Shown here piece by piece: positions 3,621-20,111 of a DNA stretch of 44,784 nt (positions are counted from its first letter, which is position 1; each line of letters opens with the position of its first letter). The position numbers and the translations under genes were made by a program. This stretch comes from Escherichia phage mutPK1A2. The notes beneath the pieces were generated by a model, which was not told where the DNA came from, did not search any database, and saw only the letters and a list, made by a program, of their open reading frames with translations. The stretch lies in the sequence record NC_047889.1; one strand, written 5' to 3'.

Positions 3621-6248
3621 ATGCAAGACCTACACGCTATTCAACTTCAACTTGAAGAAGAAATGTTTAACGGCGGTATCCGTCGCTTTGAAGCGGACCA
3701 ACAACGCCAGATTGCATCCGGTAATGAATCAGACACGGCATGGAATCGCCGCTTATTGTCCGAACTAATCGCACCTATGGCGGAAGGTATTCAGGCTTAC
3801 AAGGAAGAATACGAAGGCAAGAGAGGTCGTGCACCACGTGCATTAGCTTTCATTAACTGCGTAGAAAACGAAGTAGCAGCATATATCACCATGAAAATCG
3901 TTATGGACATGCTGAATACAGACGTTACCTTACAAGCCATCGCTATGAATGTAGCGGACCGCATCGAAGACCAAGTACGTTTTAGCAAGCTGGAAGGTCA
4001 CGCAGCTAAATACTTTGAGAAAGTGAAGAAGTCGCTTAAGGCTAGCAAGACTAAATCTTATCGTCATGCGCACAACGTAGCGGTAGTAGCTGAGAAATCT
4101 GTTGCTGACCGTGACGCGGATTTCTCCCGTTGGGAGGCATGGCCTAAAGACACCTTGCTGCAAATCGGTATGACCTTGCTCGAAATATTGGAGAATAGTG
4201 TATTCTTCAATGGTCAACCTGTCTTCCTTCGTACCTTGCGCACTAACGGCGGAAAGCATGGTGTTTACTATTTACAGACCAGTGAACATGTTGGCGAGTG
4301 GATAACTGCATTTAAGGAACATGTAGCGCAGCTCAGCCCTGCCTATGCACCTTGCGTTATACCTCCCCGCCCTTGGGTATCACCTTTTAACGGTGGGTTT
4401 CATACTGAGAAAGTAGCAAGCCGTATTCGTCTGGTAAAAGGCAATCGTGAGCACGTCCGCAAGCTGACCAAAAAGCAAATGCCAGCGGTTTACAAGGCTG
4501 TTAACGCTTTGCAGGCGACTAAGTGGCAGGTTAATAAAGAGGTTTTGCAGGTAGTAGAAGACGTTATCCGTCTCGACCTTGGTTATGGTGTGCCTTCCTT
4601 TAAACCGCTCATTGACCGCGAGAACAAGCCAGCTAATCCAGTGCCGCTAGAATTTCAGCACCTACGGGGCCGTGAACTGAAAGAAATGCTTACGCCGGAA
4701 CAATGGCAAGCCTTTATCAACTGGAAAGGTGAATGCACCAAGCTGTATACCGCTGAGACTAAGCGCGGCAGCAAATCGGCGGCGACCGTCCGCATGGTAG
4801 GACAGGCCCGTAAATACAGCCAGTTTGACGCAATATACTTCGTGTATGCACTGGACAGCCGCAGCCGCGTCTACGCGCAATCTAGCACGCTCTCTCCGCA
4901 ATCAAACGACTTAGGCAAGGCATTGCTCCGTTTTACCGAAGGGCAGCGCCTTGATAGCGCTGAGGTGCTTAAATGGTTTTTGGTGAACGGGGCTAATAAC
5001 TGGGGTTGGGATAAGAAAACTTTTGACGTGCGCACCGCTAACGTGCTGGATAGTGAATTTCAAGACATGTGCCGCGACATTGCAGCGGATCCGCTGACCT
5101 TCACTCAATGGGTTAATGCCGACTCCCCTTACGACTTCCTTGCTTGGTGCTTTGAATATGCGCGTTATCTGGATGCACTGGATGAAGGCACGCAAGACCA
5201 ATTCATGACGCACCTCCCAGTCCATCAAGATGGTAGTTGTTCTGGTATCCAGCACTACAGTGCTATGCTACGCGATGCAGTAGGTGCGAAAGCGGTAAAC
5301 CTTAAGCCCTCTGACTCCCCTCAAGATATTTATGGTGCCGTTGCGCAGGTAGTAATTCAGAAGAATTATGCATACATGAATGCAGAGGATGCGGAAACCT
5401 TCACTTCTGGCAGCGTGACTTTAACAGGTGCAGAACTTCGTAGCATGGCTAGTGCGTGGGATATGATAGGAATCACTCGCGGCCTGACCAAAAAGCCCGT
5501 AATGACACTACCTTACGGCAGCACACGTCTAACCTGCCGTGAGTCAGTGATTGATTATATCGTTGATTTAGAAGAAAAAGAGGCCCAACGGGCTATTGCG
5601 GAAGGGCGTACCGCCAACCCTGTACATCCTTTTGATAATGACCGTAAGGACAGCCTGACACCTAGCGCAGCTTATAACTATATGACAGCTCTAATCTGGC
5701 CTTCTATCTCGGAAGTGGTTAAAGCTCCTATAGTGGCAATGAAAATGATTCGTCAGCTTGCACGTTTCGCAGCTAAAAGAAACGAAGGCTTAGAATATCC
5801 CTTACCAACTGGCTTCATCTTGCAACAAAAGATAATGGCTACCGATATGCTCCGCGTATCCACTTGCTTGATGGGTGAAATCAAGATGAGTCTCCAGATT
5901 GAAACAGATGTAGTTGATGAAACGGCAATGATGGGTGCGGCTGCTCCTAACTTCGTCCATGGTCACGATGCTAGCCACCTGATTCTGACTGTATGTGACC
6001 TAGTGGATAAAGGTATTACATCCATTGCAGTCATCCATGATTCTTTCGGTACTCATGCAGGACGTACCGCAGACCTGCGGGATAGCTTAAGGGAAGAAAT
6101 GGTTAAGATGTATCAAAACCATAATGCCCTGCAAAACCTGCTAGATGTGCACGAAGAGCGTTGGTTAGTAGACACCGGAATCCAAGTACCAGAGCAAGGG
6201 GAGTTTGACCTTAACGAAATCTTAGTTTCAGACTATTGCTTCGCATAA
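3621..6248 (+). CDS. Single-subunit DNA-dependent RNA polymerase, SP6-type
   Basis: 875 aa; N-terminus [32 protein letters not shown] recognised as SP6 RNAP; catalytic motifs [13 protein letters not shown] and HDSFGTH present; RBS AGGAG. Confidence 0.95.
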
Positions 6249-15489: not shown

Positions 15490-15495
15490 TTTATG

Positions 15496-15528
15496 CCCTG
15501 TCTGACTTAGTGCAGGCAGGGTCTTTTG
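15496..15528 (+). terminator. Candidate intrinsic terminator
   Basis: 9-bp stem CCCTGTCTG / CAGGCAGGG with 8-nt loop followed by TCTTTTG. Confidence 0.5.
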
Positions 15529-15553: not shown

Positions 15554-15859
15554 ATGCCGACTATTAAATCTCGTTTAGTAGCAGACTATGTTTATGGTCG
15601 TGATGCTAGAACTTTGAAAGACTATTTCAAAGTAATCATCTTGCTGGATGGAGAAGTGTTTCACACTAAAACATTCACCCTCCCTGAATTGTTTGATTTA
15701 GGTTACTGGGGTTGTACATATCAGGCCATAGCAGACAAGGTGCTACTCAGTGTGTTAAAGGAGTGGCCTACATGCGACCAAACTTCGACTTCGGAGCTAC
15801 AGTATCGGAAGATAATAACCTGTTGCTGTGGCCGACTGAAGGTAATAGAATCGCTTTAA
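15554..15859 (+). CDS. Hypothetical protein (101 aa)
   Basis: ORF track; RBS GGAG; 3' end overlaps the exonuclease gene in another frame by about 88 nt, so the true end is uncertain. Confidence 0.4.
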   Translation: MPTIKSRLVADYVYGRDARTLKDYFKVIILLDGEVFHTKTFTLPELFDLGYWGCTYQAIADKVLLSVLKEWPTCDQTSTSELQYRKIITCCCGRLKVIESL

Positions 15860-16800
15860 TAGATGCTGATATGTTACCCTACATCGTAGGTTATACAATC
15901 AGTGACATGACTTATGTACGAGCCACAACTCGTGTTAAGTCAGGACAAGCCCCATCAATCAAAGATACACCTGAGTGTAAGCAAGCGTGTGACCGTGTGA
16001 ACTCCTTGCTTAACTCTTGGGTGTATGCAGCAGAGTGCGATGCAGCTAAGTTATTCTTGACGAAATCAGAAGCTAACTTCCGTGTTCGCCTAGCATTCAC
16101 CAAGCCTTACAAGGGTCAACGTAAGACCGAGAAGCCTCCCTTCTTCTATGAATTGCGAGAGCATCTCTTAGAGGTTCACGGTGCAATCTTGGCAGATGGA
16201 GAAGAAGCTGATGACCTCATGAGCATCGCACAATGGGCTAGCCACCGCCGCTTCCTGCAAGATACAGGTAACGAGTTCCCTATCGGTAGTCCAGAGCATA
16301 AAGCATTCTCTGATACTTGCATCGTTTCCTTAGATAAGGATTTGATGATTGTTCCCGGTTGGCATCTTCAGCCGGGTCAAGAGAAGAAATGGGTAGAACC
16401 TATGGGTTGGCTTGAGTTACGCCGCAAGGCTAACGGTCAAGTCAAAGACCTAAAAGGTGCTGGCCTTATGTTCCATTATGCACAGATGATTATCGGTGAT
16501 GATATTGATAACTATGCTGGCATACCTGGTCGTGGTGCTAAATATGCCTATGATCTTCTCAAAGGTTGTAAGACAGAGAAAGAATTGTACATGGCAGTGC
16601 TTGGAGCTTACAAAGCTAAGTTCGGTCATGGACAGGTTAAGATTAAGAATTACCGAGGTGGTTATCGGGTTGGCAAAGCCTTTGACCTTATGCTTGAATG
16701 TGGTCGCCTAGCACACATGGCTAGGTTCAAAGGTGATATATGGCGGGCCGATAAGAACCCAATCTTGTGGGGAGATGATGCGGAATGGTTAGCAAATTAA
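15772..16800 (+). CDS. 5'-3' exonuclease (T7 gp6-like, FEN family)
   Basis: Start ATG 15772 with RBS AAGGAG; acidic active-site-like motifs IALIDADMLPY, EADDLMSIA, VSLDKDLMIVPG in the arrangement of FEN-type exonucleases. Confidence 0.7.
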   Translation: MRPNFDFGATVSEDNNLLLWPTEGNRIALIDADMLPYIVGYTISDMTYVRATTRVKSGQAPSIKDTPECKQACDRVNSLLNSWVYAAECDAAKLFLTKSEANFRVRLAFTKPYKGQRKTEKPPFFYELREHLLEVHGAILADGEEADDLMSIAQWASHRRFLQDTGNEFPIGSPEHKAFSDTCIVSLDKDLMIVPGWHLQPGQEKKWVEPMGWLELRRKANGQVKDLKGAGLMFHYAQMIIGDDIDNYAGIPGRGAKYAYDLLKGCKTEKELYMAVLGAYKAKFGHGQVKIKNYRGGYRVGKAFDLMLECGRLAHMARFKGDIWRADKNPILWGDDAEWLAN

Positions 16801-17198
16801 AAGCATCGGAGGTGGCAGCTTATAAGAAGGAATTGCTAGATAAGCAAGGATGGAAATGCCCTCTGTGTGGCGGCAGCCTCAAAGCTGTCACACCTGTAAA
16901 CCGTGTACTTGACCATGACCATGAGACAGGATTCTGCCGTGCTGTTGTATGCCGAGGCTGCAATGGTGCGGAAGGGAAGATTAAGGGTGTTATCTCTGGT
17001 TATGGTAAGGCGGGTAATAACCGTTACTTCCAGCTTCAATGGTTAGAGAGATTGTATGAATACTGGAAGTTACATAGTACGCCTCAGACAGATAAGTTAT
17101 ATCACAAACATCAAACGGAGGCAGAGAAGCGCGAGGCTAAGAACCGTAAGGCACGCCTTGCTTATGCAAGAAAGAAGAAGGAGGTTAAAGTTGGGTAA
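16785..17198 (+). CDS. Endonuclease VII-like Holliday junction resolvase
   Basis: CPLCGG...LDHDHETGFCRAVVCRGCNGAEGKIKG matches the zinc/HNH-like motif pattern I recall for T4 endonuclease VII (CLICQ...HLDHDHE...CNLCNAAEG). Confidence 0.7.
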   Translation: MVSKLKASEVAAYKKELLDKQGWKCPLCGGSLKAVTPVNRVLDHDHETGFCRAVVCRGCNGAEGKIKGVISGYGKAGNNRYFQLQWLERLYEYWKLHSTPQTDKLYHKHQTEAEKREAKNRKARLAYARKKKEVKVG

Positions 17199-18198
17199 GC
17201 TTCGCAGCTTGTACAAAGACTCCGAGGTACTTGATGCAATCGAGCAAGCTACCGACGAGAAAGGTAATGTTAACTACAATGAGATGGCACGTGTATTATC
17301 GTGTCATCCTGTGGGTAAGAAGATTACCCGCCAGTTGGCTCGATACTGGCATGGTCAATTCAAGAAGACCAAGAAGAATGGTGATTACTATCAGACTCTT
17401 CTGCAAGAGGATCGGCGCATCAAAGAAGGGCGTAAGCTCAGGACTCCTGACCGTTACGAGGATTTGGCTGTTGTACCATTGCCTGACTCGCCTCATCGAA
17501 GTGTACTGGTAATCCCTGATACTCATGCACCTTATGAGCACCCAGATACCTTAGGGTTCCTTGCAGCAGTGGCAGCACGTTACCGTCCAGACACAGTGGT
17601 ACATCTCGGAGATGAAGCAGATAAACACGCCCTCTCCTTCCACGACTCTGATCCAAATCTGGATAGTGCTGGGGTGGAATTGGAGAAGGCTCGTGTCTTT
17701 ATGCATAAGCTGCATAAGATGTTTCCTGTGATGCGCCTGTGTCATTCTAATCACGGCTCTATGCACTTCCGTAAGGCAAGCGCCAAAGGTATTCCTGTAC
17801 AATATCTGCGTACCTATCGTGAAGTCTTCTTTCCGCATGGGGGTGGCGACCAGTGGGATTGGCAGCATACACACGTTCTTGAGTTGCCGAATGGTGAACA
17901 GGTTGCATTTAAGCATCAACCCGCAGGCTCAGTCTTAGCAGATGCAGCGCATGAGCGCATGAACTTAGTGTGCGGTCACTTGCATGGTAAGATGTCGGTG
18001 GAGTATGCACGTAATACACATGAACAGTATTGGGCTGTGCAGGGCGGCTGTTTGATTGATGAGTCATCTCGTGCATTTGCCTATGGTCGTGAGTCCAAAT
18101 ACAAGCCAGCATTAGGTTGTGTGGTTATTCTGGAGGGTGTGCCGCACATTGTCCCGATGCAGACCAATAGTGATAATCGCTGGATTGGTAAGATTTAG
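17191..18198 (+). CDS. Calcineurin-like metallophosphoesterase
   Basis: Motifs VIPDTHAP (DxH), HLGDEAD (GDxxD), CHSNHGS (GNH-like), GHLHG; start placed at TTG 17191 behind AAGGAGG (track ATG 17056 would overlap the resolvase by 143 nt); start is uncertain. Confidence 0.65.
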   Translation: MGKLRSLYKDSEVLDAIEQATDEKGNVNYNEMARVLSCHPVGKKITRQLARYWHGQFKKTKKNGDYYQTLLQEDRRIKEGRKLRTPDRYEDLAVVPLPDSPHRSVLVIPDTHAPYEHPDTLGFLAAVAARYRPDTVVHLGDEADKHALSFHDSDPNLDSAGVELEKARVFMHKLHKMFPVMRLCHSNHGSMHFRKASAKGIPVQYLRTYREVFFPHGGGDQWDWQHTHVLELPNGEQVAFKHQPAGSVLADAAHERMNLVCGHLHGKMSVEYARNTHEQYWAVQGGCLIDESSRAFAYGRESKYKPALGCVVILEGVPHIVPMQTNSDNRWIGKI

Positions 18199-18215
18199 TT
18201 GACACTATAGAACAA
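18193..18215 (+). promoter_or_regulatory. Phage promoter ATTTAGTTGACACTATAGAACAA
   Basis: Closest of all copies to the classical SP6 promoter ATTTAGGTGACACTATAGAAG. Confidence 0.65.
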
Positions 18216-18265
18216 AGGGTAGGTATTAGCTTACCCTTGATTGTATAGTGAATGGAGGAATTAAT

Positions 18266-18805
18266 ATGTCACAATATGTATGTGAGAAATGCGGCAATCG
18301 ATATGATAACTGCACCTGTGATTATAATAAAGGTAAAAGGATTAAATCAGGTGATTATGTTATACGACGTGCAGGCTGCCGCGACCCAGAGTGGGGCAGG
18401 GTGTGTAAACTATTAGGCAAGAAATCAGATGCAACATTCAAAGTTATAAAGGATGAGTCTGTCGGCAGCGCCATTATACTTGAAGGTATCGAAAAGCGAG
18501 AATGGTATGCACCTTTTTTCGAGAGAGTGGCAACCCCACCAGTTGTACCTGAGTCTAATAACTCAAACAATAATATGGTTACGCAACCTAAGCACTACGA
18601 GTTCTTCGATGGGGTAGAGGCAATCACTATCATTGCTCGTAGTATGACCGAGAAGCAATTTGCTGGATATTGCATGGGTAATGCTTTGAAGTATCGTCTG
18701 CGTGCAGGGAAGAAATTCAACACGGAAGAAGACCTGAAGAAAGCAGACTACTACAAAGAGCTATTCCAGAAGCATCGTCACGAATGTATTGATGAGGATA
18801 TTTAA
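18266..18805 (+). CDS. gp1.7-like nucleotide kinase
   Basis: C-terminal block PKHYEFFDGVEAITIIARSMTEKQFAGYCMGNALKYRLRAGKK...ADYYKELF matches my recollection of the T7 gp1.7 conserved domain; N-terminal Cys-rich region; RBS GGAGG. Confidence 0.65.
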   Translation: MSQYVCEKCGNRYDNCTCDYNKGKRIKSGDYVIRRAGCRDPEWGRVCKLLGKKSDATFKVIKDESVGSAIILEGIEKREWYAPFFERVATPPVVPESNNSNNNMVTQPKHYEFFDGVEAITIIARSMTEKQFAGYCMGNALKYRLRAGKKFNTEEDLKKADYYKELFQKHRHECIDEDI

Positions 18806-18806
18806 T

Positions 18807-18980
18807 ATGGAAGGTAAACTATATAGAGGGTACTTCGGTAACTTATATAGAGTAAGCCCTCTCGGTTTTGTATTGACCTCCAATGATGAAGGTGCAATGT
18901 GGTTCCTAAGTGCCTATGGTTCTGACTTAGCATACTTTAAAGAGGCAATAGTTAAAGGTGTGATGAAGGAGGTGAAATGA
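18807..18980 (+). CDS. Hypothetical protein (57 aa)
   Basis: Part of track ORF 18789..18980; ATG 18807 chosen on RBS GAGGA. Confidence 0.35.
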   Translation: MEGKLYRGYFGNLYRVSPLGFVLTSNDEGAMWFLSAYGSDLAYFKEAIVKGVMKEVK

Positions 18981-19924
18981 ATATCTTCCAATTCCTAGGT
19001 CTTCCAGAAGACCACCGCAATCACCCATTCATGCTGGTGAAACATCGCGGTGAAGTACCTGAGAAGAAATTAACTTTTCCATGTTATGCACAGGTAAAAC
19101 GAGATGGTATATTTAGTGCTGTGGTTGTTCGCAACGATGGTGTCGTTGGTGTCTTTGGACGCACTGGAAAGAAACTGGCTAACACGGAAACCTTGGAAGA
19201 ATCTTATTCAGCTTTCCCTACTGGCATTTATCTCGGTGAGTTGCAATCTATGGCTATTGATGTCTACCTTGAAGCACTTTCTGGAGTAGTTAACCCTAAC
19301 CGCACTGAGCCACTGGATTTCATAGGCCAGCAGATTAAAGACAACCTGTATATTGACTTCTTCGATATGTTAACTATTAAGGCATTCCATGATGGATTCA
19401 CTGATGTTTCTTATCTCAAACGTTACGATGCTTTACATCGTCGCATCGGCGCTCATCTTAGCGGGTACAACGCTATCCTTCCTATTACTCCTTGCCATAA
19501 TGAGCGAGAAGTTGAAGCGTTTGCGCAAGAGCAAATAGACGCAGGCCGAGAGGGTGCTGTGTTTAAACTGGACTGTGATTATGAAGCAGGCCACAAAGGT
19601 TATCGTCAGACTAAAGAAGTCCGTAAGGTAACTTATGACCTTACTTGTATTGGCTTTGAAGAAGGCAAAGGTAAGTACAAAGGTAAGGTAGCTAACCTCA
19701 TTTTCAAATGGAAAGGAGGCAAGACAATCAAAGCTATGTTAGGTAAAGGGTGGACTCATGCAGATGCAGAACAGATGTTCCACGATATTAAACATGGTGG
19801 ACGATTGAATGTCATTGGTAAAATCTTTGAAGTAAAAGGTCTTCAGGATTCAAGCAAGGGCAACATTCGTCTGCCCAAAGCGGGAGAATTAAGACATGAC
19901 AAAGATGAACCAGATTTCTTTTGA
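18977..19924 (+). CDS. ATP-dependent DNA ligase
   Basis: 315 aa; adenylation motif I KRDG in VKRDGIFSAV; strong RBS AAGGAGGTG; C-terminus DEPDFF. Confidence 0.85.
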   Translation: MNIFQFLGLPEDHRNHPFMLVKHRGEVPEKKLTFPCYAQVKRDGIFSAVVVRNDGVVGVFGRTGKKLANTETLEESYSAFPTGIYLGELQSMAIDVYLEALSGVVNPNRTEPLDFIGQQIKDNLYIDFFDMLTIKAFHDGFTDVSYLKRYDALHRRIGAHLSGYNAILPITPCHNEREVEAFAQEQIDAGREGAVFKLDCDYEAGHKGYRQTKEVRKVTYDLTCIGFEEGKGKYKGKVANLIFKWKGGKTIKAMLGKGWTHADAEQMFHDIKHGGRLNVIGKIFEVKGLQDSSKGNIRLPKAGELRHDKDEPDFF

Positions 19925-20111
19925 TAGCATGAAGGCAACTCGTGCAGTTGAGGTAGCAGAAGTTATCTTTGAAACTTTATCCTGTGGCATGGAAGTGCCA
20001 TATACCTTACTAGCTGATGCAGAAGAGCTTGGTCTTTCTGTAGAAGCTATCCAAGAGAAAGTTGAAGAACTCTATGGTACAGACGAAGAAGAAACCGACG
20101 ATTTCATTTGA
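19896..20111 (+). CDS. Hypothetical acidic protein (71 aa)
   Basis: ORF track; RBS GGGAG; overlaps the ligase end. Confidence 0.4.
   Translation: MTKMNQISFDSMKATRAVEVAEVIFETLSCGMEVPYTLLADAEELGLSVEAIQEKVEELYGTDEEETDDFI

Follow-up and report, generated by a model that had tools for sequence, protein, structure and literature searches.

Endonuclease VII, a divergent metallophosphoesterase and a DUF3310 protein in Escherichia phage mutPK1A2: a probable DNA-processing and nucleotide-salvage block with an exchangeable kinase slot

Is the short run of DNA-metabolism genes at positions 16785 to 18805 of Escherichia phage mutPK1A2 (NC_047889.1; 44,784 nucleotides (nt), the whole of which is here called the window) a mosaic assembled from other phage lineages, and could the phosphatase and the kinase that it appears to encode act as a pair on nucleotides or DNA ends? 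Both ideas had been put forward in a first-pass annotation made from the sequence alone, which named an endonuclease VII-type resolvase, a calcineurin-like phosphoesterase and a gp1.7-like nucleotide kinase. The window comprises the entire genome of a Vectrevirus (Autographiviridae, Molineuxvirinae) sharing about 95% identity with Escherichia phage K1E (megablast over 16500-19000 and 1-24000), and the block contains three predicted open reading frames (ORFs) on the + strand, encoding an endonuclease VII, a metallophosphoesterase and a DUF3310 protein. Its limits are those originally drawn, from the start codon of the endonuclease VII gene to the stop codon of the kinase gene, and profile searches on each protein upheld the three family assignments, returning no different families. 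Homologues were found in 1813 phage records for endonuclease VII and in 641 for the phosphoesterase, and 363 homologous proteins were found for the DUF3310 gene; such numbers exclude chance ORFs and imply that all three are real genes. Public annotation of K1E, K1-5 and SP6 already contains these genes under their family names, together with the contrast to gene 3 of T7. Taken as a whole, our analysis makes it probable that this region closes the class II (DNA-metabolism) module of a K1E/SP6-like podophage, and that it represents a block for DNA processing and nucleotide salvage, inherited in the non-T7 Autographiviridae, in which only the kinase slot and individual alleles have been exchanged.

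The order of the genes in related phages carries much of this interpretation. We examined 80 IMG/VR loci containing relatives of the phosphoesterase, in which the neighbouring genes were located by phmmer. The order exonuclease, endonuclease VII, phosphoesterase, a variable slot, DNA ligase, acetyltransferase and portal recurred while the identity of the phosphoesterase to that of mutPK1A2 decreased from 98% to about 45%, and was seen in the Molineuxvirinae, the Colwellvirinae (Vibrio phage Vp670 among them) and the Melnykvirinae, as well as in environmental relatives whose phosphoesterases are 44-60% identical. In Aeromonas phage CF7 (Melnykvirinae) the exonuclease, endonuclease VII and phosphoesterase genes were followed by those of a HAD phosphatase, a deoxynucleoside monophosphate (dNMP) kinase and the RNA polymerase. 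Of the 63 loci carrying both the endonuclease VII and the phosphoesterase gene, about 40 had a spacing between the two of -26 to +11 nt, at phosphoesterase identities of 44-98%. Closer to mutPK1A2, gp21 to gp23 of K1E (and also gp22-24 of SP6 and the K1-5 homologues) show the same genes, order, overlaps and promoter position, with 93% identity to K1E over the 2.5-kb region and 99% in the kinase gene. In other environmental relatives the phosphoesterase gene was found between those of the helicase and the DNA polymerase; in every locus examined it lay inside the replication module, and it adjoined kinases or phosphatases in four different arrangements. The conservation of this order across deeply diverged subfamilies suggests that the block was inherited and not recently imported.

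Exchange was found in the slot that follows the phosphoesterase and that is bordered downstream by the ATP-dependent DNA ligase gene. This slot was occupied by a DUF3310 protein, by an unrelated P-loop dNMP kinase or by neither. In five loci (L018, L019, L022, L023 and L027), whose phosphoesterases are 83-88% identical to that of mutPK1A2, a deoxynucleoside-monophosphate kinase of phrog_139 (E=1e-43) replaces the DUF3310 protein, at about 5057-5653 in the first four and at 2054-2629 in L027, while in L028 no kinase of either type was found in the slot. The non-orthologous replacement of one protein by the other at a single position suggests a shared role, and provides independent support for the view that the non-P-loop DUF3310 proteins act as dNMP kinases. 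The slot protein of Pectobacterium phage PP1 (L030, 4896-5531) shares with the DUF3310 protein a Cys-plus-beta N-terminal domain (hhalign probability 92.6%), and its C-terminus is a different domain (phrog_4521/9919/7063) with no Pfam match. A 125-amino-acid (aa) protein of this C-terminal type, encoded at 3631-4008 of an environmental podophage locus (L045), overlaps the start of the phosphoesterase gene, both lying between the helicase and the DNA polymerase. The possibility that the PP1 and L045 proteins are divergent DUF3310 proteins was supported neither by Pfam nor by hhalign, as the N-terminal beta-domain alone is shared.

Variation of a second kind was observed among the Vectreviruses themselves. 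Over part of the endonuclease VII gene (16800-17100) mutPK1A2 and K1E are just 60-70% identical, and a drop of similar size occurs at 19650-19950, the 3' end of the ligase gene; the two patches have values of 60-78% against 94-100% in their surroundings, and identity is about 100% over 17850-19500. The endonuclease VII allele of mutPK1A2 is 99% identical in the Vectreviruses ULINTec6 and UTI89UKE2, and most Vectreviruses match just 64% of the kinase region. In GC content (0.42-0.48) the region resembles the genome at large. This pattern of identities points to recombination between alleles of Vectreviruses. Hence the modular exchange with other lineages originally suggested for the whole block holds for the kinase slot, by replacement and by shuffling of N-terminal domains, and for the Vectrevirus alleles; applied to the endonuclease VII and phosphoesterase genes, which keep their order in several subfamilies, it goes too far.

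We propose the following working scheme. The exonuclease, endonuclease VII and the phosphoesterase would be produced together from their overlapping genes. Endonuclease VII would cut Holliday junctions and the branches arising in replication and recombination, making concatemers packageable, and by analogy with T7 gp3 and gp6 it would probably also aid the exonuclease in degrading host DNA to dNMPs. The phosphoesterase, whose dinuclear-metal site is intact, would most likely act in the same pathway as a phosphodiesterase or nuclease on DNA ends or oligonucleotides. A phage promoter would drive the DUF3310 gene, and its product would return the salvaged dNMPs to the deoxynucleoside triphosphate pool. 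A role on nucleotides or DNA for the phosphoesterase, and that of a dNMP kinase for the DUF3310 protein, are favoured because of the slot replacement, the recurrent adjacency to kinases or phosphatases and the constant placement in the replication module. The earlier idea of a phosphatase/kinase pair fits this recurrent adjacency.

The properties of each protein are in keeping with such functions. Endonuclease VII scored 47.6 bits against PF02945, for which the cut-off is 23.6, and its residues 14-99 matched the T4 endonuclease VII structures 1e7d and 1en7 at E=1.1e-8 (phmmer). Its zinc ligands (C25, C28, C56 and C59) and its catalytic residues (the D43-H44-D45-H46 block, N60 and E63) all align with T4 counterparts, which we take to be C23/C26/C58/C61 for zinc and D40, H41/H43, N62 and E65 for catalysis. 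The Cys pairs, LDHDHE and CxxCNxAEG are shared with T4 gp49 (1e7d, 1en7, 2qnc); in contrast, the T4 protein has 157 aa and that of mutPK1A2 137, and for the basic C-terminal tail of the latter (residues 100-137) there is no alignment to the dimerisation region of the T4 enzyme. A similarity to T7 gp3 (T7 endonuclease I) was sought and none was found, the best BLASTP match having E=1.8, and a search of T7 positions 1-21000 gave homologues of neither endonuclease VII nor the phosphoesterase. The assignment of the resolvase to the T4 endonuclease VII type, as opposed to that of T7 gene 3, was thus borne out by PF02945, by the aligned T4 residues and by the comparison with gp3. We predict an HNH-type, zinc-stabilised nuclease that would cut four-way junctions or branched DNA. 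The 1813 records with homologues, obtained by tblastn, span phiKMV-, KP34-, Friunavirus- and SP6-like podophages and T4-like myophages; endonuclease VII is the usual resolvase of the non-T7 Autographiviridae and no peculiarity of this genome.

For the phosphoesterase, the mechanically defined ORF spans 17056-18198 (380 aa), and the true start is the TTG at 17191, which has AAGGAGG six bases ahead of it, lies in a sequence context identical to that of K1E gp22 and yields 335 aa. With this start, the first 8 nt of the gene are also the last 8 of the endonuclease VII gene, stop codon included. The protein consists of a helical, family-specific N-domain (residues ~1-95) and a metallophosphoesterase core (~100-335) containing D110-x-H112, G140-D141-E-x-D144-x-H146, S-N187-H188-G, H242 and G262-H263-x-H265. 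These five motifs (DxH, GDxxD, GNH[DE], H and GHxH) are invariant or nearly so in 27 aligned homologues, down to 48% identity, and after motif II there is a conserved insert specific to this family, H146-x-x-S-x-H-x-S-D-P-x-L-x-x-x-G. A library-wide profile search returned 758 cluster representatives at E<1e-30, many of which are core-only forms of 230-245 aa, implying that the N-domain is lineage-specific. The records found by tblastn belong mainly to podophages of Klebsiella, Escherichia, Pectobacterium, Pseudomonas, Aeromonas, Vibrio, Proteus and Salmonella. The family is thus conserved in at least 641 sequenced phages, including many therapeutic phages of Klebsiella, E. coli and Pectobacterium, and knowledge of its substrate would clarify either the recycling of host DNA or the processing of replication intermediates.

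A confident AlphaFold model of the phosphoesterase (predicted local distance difference test, pLDDT, 83) contains the metallophosphoesterase beta-sandwich fold. The folds closest to it were those of nucleases or phosphodiesterases; scores in the fold search included those of the phosphodiesterases MJ0936 (13.3) and YfcE (13.1), of polymerase B-subunits, Vps29 and LpxH (11.5-12.3) and of SbcD/Mre11 (~11.4), with the PPP protein phosphatases (<=10) and the Clostridium thermocellum Pnkp phosphatase (9.0) lower. The phage protein differs from PolD DP1 (5ihe), MJ0936 (1s3l), YfcE (1su1) and SbcD/Mre11 in that identity is just 11-17%, and the motif-II insert and the ~95-residue helical N-domain belong to the phage protein. 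The fold model weakly suggests a phosphodiesterase or nuclease chemistry. That the second gene encodes a calcineurin-like metallophosphoesterase, as first annotated, was confirmed by phrog_221, the five motifs and the fold, Pfam itself remaining below threshold.

Several observations weigh against our interpretation. The score against PF00149 (Metallophos) was 18.9 bits, under the gathering cut-off of 21.5; homologues score 19-20.5, the family being divergent. Searches by sequence and by profile among solved structures gave no match for the phosphoesterase, and in the literature searched we found no functional study or biochemistry of the family. In addition, in the KP34-like phages, which are the main exception to the common gene order, the phosphoesterase gene follows that of the DNA polymerase, and the exonuclease, endonuclease VII and DUF3310 genes lie 4-5 kb downstream, so that the coupling of endonuclease VII to the phosphoesterase is not universal.

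Some further features of the phosphoesterase family are worth recording. A match to NCBIfam PdeM (ligase-associated phosphoesterase) was discarded as motif-only, since it covered 33 residues at E=0.002 and was far under the 150-bit cut-off. Three homologues (P0241 with 635 aa, P0278 with 586 aa, and A0A514CY74, the 637-aa protein of Proteus phage vB_PmiP_RS8pmA) carry in motif II, between GDE and xDxH, an intein-like insert of ~300 residues that begins with Cys, ends in ...VNGN followed by Cys, and was unrecognised by Pfam. In BFVD the K1E phosphoesterase appears as two entries, A0A2I4Q1Z7 (the N-domain, 104 aa) and A0A2I4Q1Y4 (the core, 237 aa); this split may reflect a frameshift or a sequencing difference, and it fits an N-domain that is an independent fold. 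Pfam searches with the isolated N-domains of the phosphoesterase and of the kinase gave nothing significant.

A bolder extension of the salvage scheme, which we advance only tentatively and regard as doubtful, is that endonuclease VII and the phosphoesterase form one machine, in which the cutter would be physically coupled to a DP1/Mre11-like end-trimming phosphodiesterase feeding the interchangeable dNMP-kinase slot, in an undescribed pathway for host-DNA salvage and branch removal in most non-T7 Autographiviridae. Such a two-part machine is hinted at by the conserved stop/start overlap, by the intein-like insert in motif II and by an in-frame fusion of the two genes in PP1, where in a 348-aa ORF (L030 3779-4825; NC_019542 18665-19711) the first 75, catalytic residues of endonuclease VII are continued by a phosphoesterase that sets in at about residue 62. 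In POP72, which is 99.9% identical to PP1, there are ~360 bp more at the fusion site and the genes are separate; this comparison implies that the PP1 fusion is a deletion in which the C-terminus of endonuclease VII and the larger part of the N-domain of the phosphoesterase were lost, and as the product of a single deletion it makes weak "Rosetta stone" evidence.

The DUF3310 protein is the third member of the block. Its mechanical ORF spans 18248-18805, and the true start is the ATG at 18266, preceded by GGAGG as in K1E gp23, giving 179 aa. It scored 87.8 bits against PF11753 (cut-off 24) and shares with T7 gp1.7 48% of its residues in a stretch of 108 aa (E=2e-31), in agreement with its earlier description as gp1.7-like. 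This homology is C-terminal only: a full-length relationship to gp1.7 was sought, and residues 70-174 alone align. The model shows a CxxC...CxC cluster at residues 6-19, a beta-rich region (~28-90), a disordered linker (~94-115) and the three-helix DUF3310 domain (~108-175), which contains an invariant GN-LKY-LRAGKK motif. The likeness to T7 gp1.7 therefore includes the C-terminal region with its GN-LKYRLRAGKK motif, whereas the N-terminal 70-85 residues are unrelated, being replaced here by the Cys cluster and the beta-domain; the position of the gene also differs, since in T7 it follows the ligase and precedes gene 2, and here it follows the phosphoesterase and precedes the ligase. The N-terminal modules vary among relatives as well, with 156-aa forms lacking the Cys cluster and 185-aa SP6-like forms having an extra Cys-rich insert. 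No solved structure was found for this protein by sequence or profile, and its fold matched no known kinase. In the statements of PMC7693777 and PMC11897194 that cite Tran et al. 2012, T7 gp1.7 is described as a kinase of thymidine and deoxyguanosine monophosphates (dTMP/dGMP) unlike all other nucleotide kinases. Such activity is known for T7 gp1.7 only, whose phosphorylation of dGMP and dTMP was demonstrated biochemically. By homology to part of that protein, the DUF3310 protein of mutPK1A2 would be expected to have kinase activity. T7 gene 1.7 is also reported to confer sensitivity to dideoxythymidine. In addition, T7 gp1.7 is reported to activate Avs5, a SIR2-STAND defence protein (PMC11897194), and in K1E-like phages the DUF3310 proteins could therefore trigger immunity besides acting as enzymes.

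The promoter preceding this gene has the sequence ATTTAGTTGACACTATAGAACA, which we take to resemble the SP6 consensus, with a predicted +1 at G18210. The string TTGACACTATAGAA occurs exactly at 18199-18212, this being one of ten + strand sites with <=2 mismatches in the window against 0.41 expected, and the phosphoesterase stop codon falls within the promoter. A stem-loop lies directly after the predicted +1, at the 5' end of the predicted transcript, and could be an element for RNA processing or stability.

We weighed three other explanations against a block for DNA processing and salvage. The first of them, which we consider unlikely, is that phosphoesterase, kinase and ligase constitute a split end-healing and sealing system repairing nucleic acid cut by host defence nucleases, in which the phosphoesterase would remove a 3'-phosphate or a 2',3'-cyclic phosphate, the kinase would phosphorylate the 5'-OH and the ligase would seal. 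T4 Pnkp/Rnl1 and bacterial Pnkp/Hen1 carry out repair of this kind, and here the three genes are consecutive. Downstream of the phosphoesterase, CF7-like phages encode a PNKP-type HAD phosphatase domain (PF25109, E=5.8e-16) and then a P-loop kinase, and the PP1 and L045 slot proteins match phrog_7063, named "3'-phosphatase, 5'-polynucleotide kinase". However, the homology of the DUF3310 protein is to T7 gp1.7, a kinase of mononucleotides, and the phrog_139 proteins that replace it are dNMP kinases and not polynucleotide kinases; Pfam, NCBIfam and PHROGs gave no P-loop polynucleotide kinase or HAD 3'-phosphatase domain in the three proteins, HAD_PNKP occurring in relatives such as CF7 only. The ligase is a T7-type ATP-dependent DNA ligase, as expected for the joining of Okazaki fragments, and in several lineages it lies apart from the phosphoesterase or is missing from the flank, while the fold search ranks the Pnkp-type metallophosphoesterases far lower than those of nuclease and phosphodiesterase type. 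The arrangement differs also from C. thermocellum Pnkp, where kinase, metallophosphoesterase and ligase-like modules are domains and not separate genes; here, moreover, the kinase does not belong to the P-loop polynucleotide kinases, and the ligase is a DNA ligase.

It is likewise improbable that the phosphoesterase is an enzyme of counter-defence or host takeover, be it a phosphodiesterase that breaks down the cyclic nucleotides of immune signalling or a protein Ser/Thr phosphatase like that of lambda. Among the annotated matches the family is phage-restricted and it is widely conserved, and the neighbourhood touches immunity through the Avs5-triggering activity reported for T7 gp1.7. Against this, the gene is always in the replication/recombination module, usually translationally coupled to that of endonuclease VII, and not among the early host-takeover genes. 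PADLOC gave no match for the phosphoesterase and no defence-system match in the region except the expected similarity of the endonuclease VII HNH domain to a type II restriction enzyme. PPP phosphatases typically have the motif GDxVDRG, and motif II of the phage protein is GDExDxH, without that arginine. Least probable of all, and largely refuted by the conserved synteny, is that a T7-like backbone recently acquired both the endonuclease VII and the phosphoesterase gene from lineages such as T4: endonuclease VII is indeed common to T4-like phages (~37% identity over 60% of the protein), both genes are missing from the T7 segment searched and identity to K1E drops in the endonuclease VII gene, but the same order is kept in several deeply diverged subfamilies, most non-T7 Autographiviridae genera are among the records with endonuclease VII, the low-identity patch is an alternative Vectrevirus allele and not a foreign gene, and the GC content is unremarkable for this genome.

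The features surrounding the block are collected in Table 1. In K1E, RefSeq names gp20-24 exonuclease, endonuclease VII, metallo-phosphoesterase, nucleotide kinase and DNA ligase. The exonuclease has a weak 5_3_exonuc SAM-fold match in addition to its PHROGs assignment, and its 3' end runs 16 nt into the start of the endonuclease VII gene, so that the exonuclease, endonuclease VII and phosphoesterase genes form an overlapping trio.

Table 1. Coordinates in the window of the predicted genes and RNA features in and around the endonuclease VII block.
Feature	Position	Strand	Evidence or remark
5'-3' exonuclease (K1E gp20 / T7 gp6-like)	15772..16800	+	phrog_107 E=2.7e-74; start from K1E gp20
Endonuclease VII, 137 aa	16785..17198	+	PF02945 E=1.6e-12; phrog_423 E=3.6e-48
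Metallophosphoesterase, 335 aa, TTG start	17191..18198	+	phrog_221 E=6e-105
SP6/K1E-type phage RNA polymerase promoter (predicted)	18193..18214	+	between phosphoesterase and kinase genes
10-bp stem-loop	18215..18238	+	RNA fold -13.8 kcal/mol, z=-2.2
gp1.7-like DUF3310 protein, 179 aa	18266..18805	+	PF11753 E=4.7e-25; phrog_1689 "nucleotide kinase" E=6.6e-49
Small conserved ORF, 57 aa	18807..18980	+	phrog_15259 E=7e-39
ATP-dependent DNA ligase	18977..19924	+	PF01068 and PF14743; phrog_114 E=4.8e-72

The small ORF between the kinase and ligase genes, for which phrog_15259 assigns no function, has 57 aa from the ATG at 18807 and would have 63 aa if translated from the TTG at 18789, and its 3' end runs into the start of the ligase gene; the RefSeq record of K1E does not annotate it, and only some relatives have one. 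Upstream of the exonuclease operon, 3' of a gp18-like gene, a strong terminator-like hairpin with 10 pairs and a T-rich tail is located at 15495-15522.

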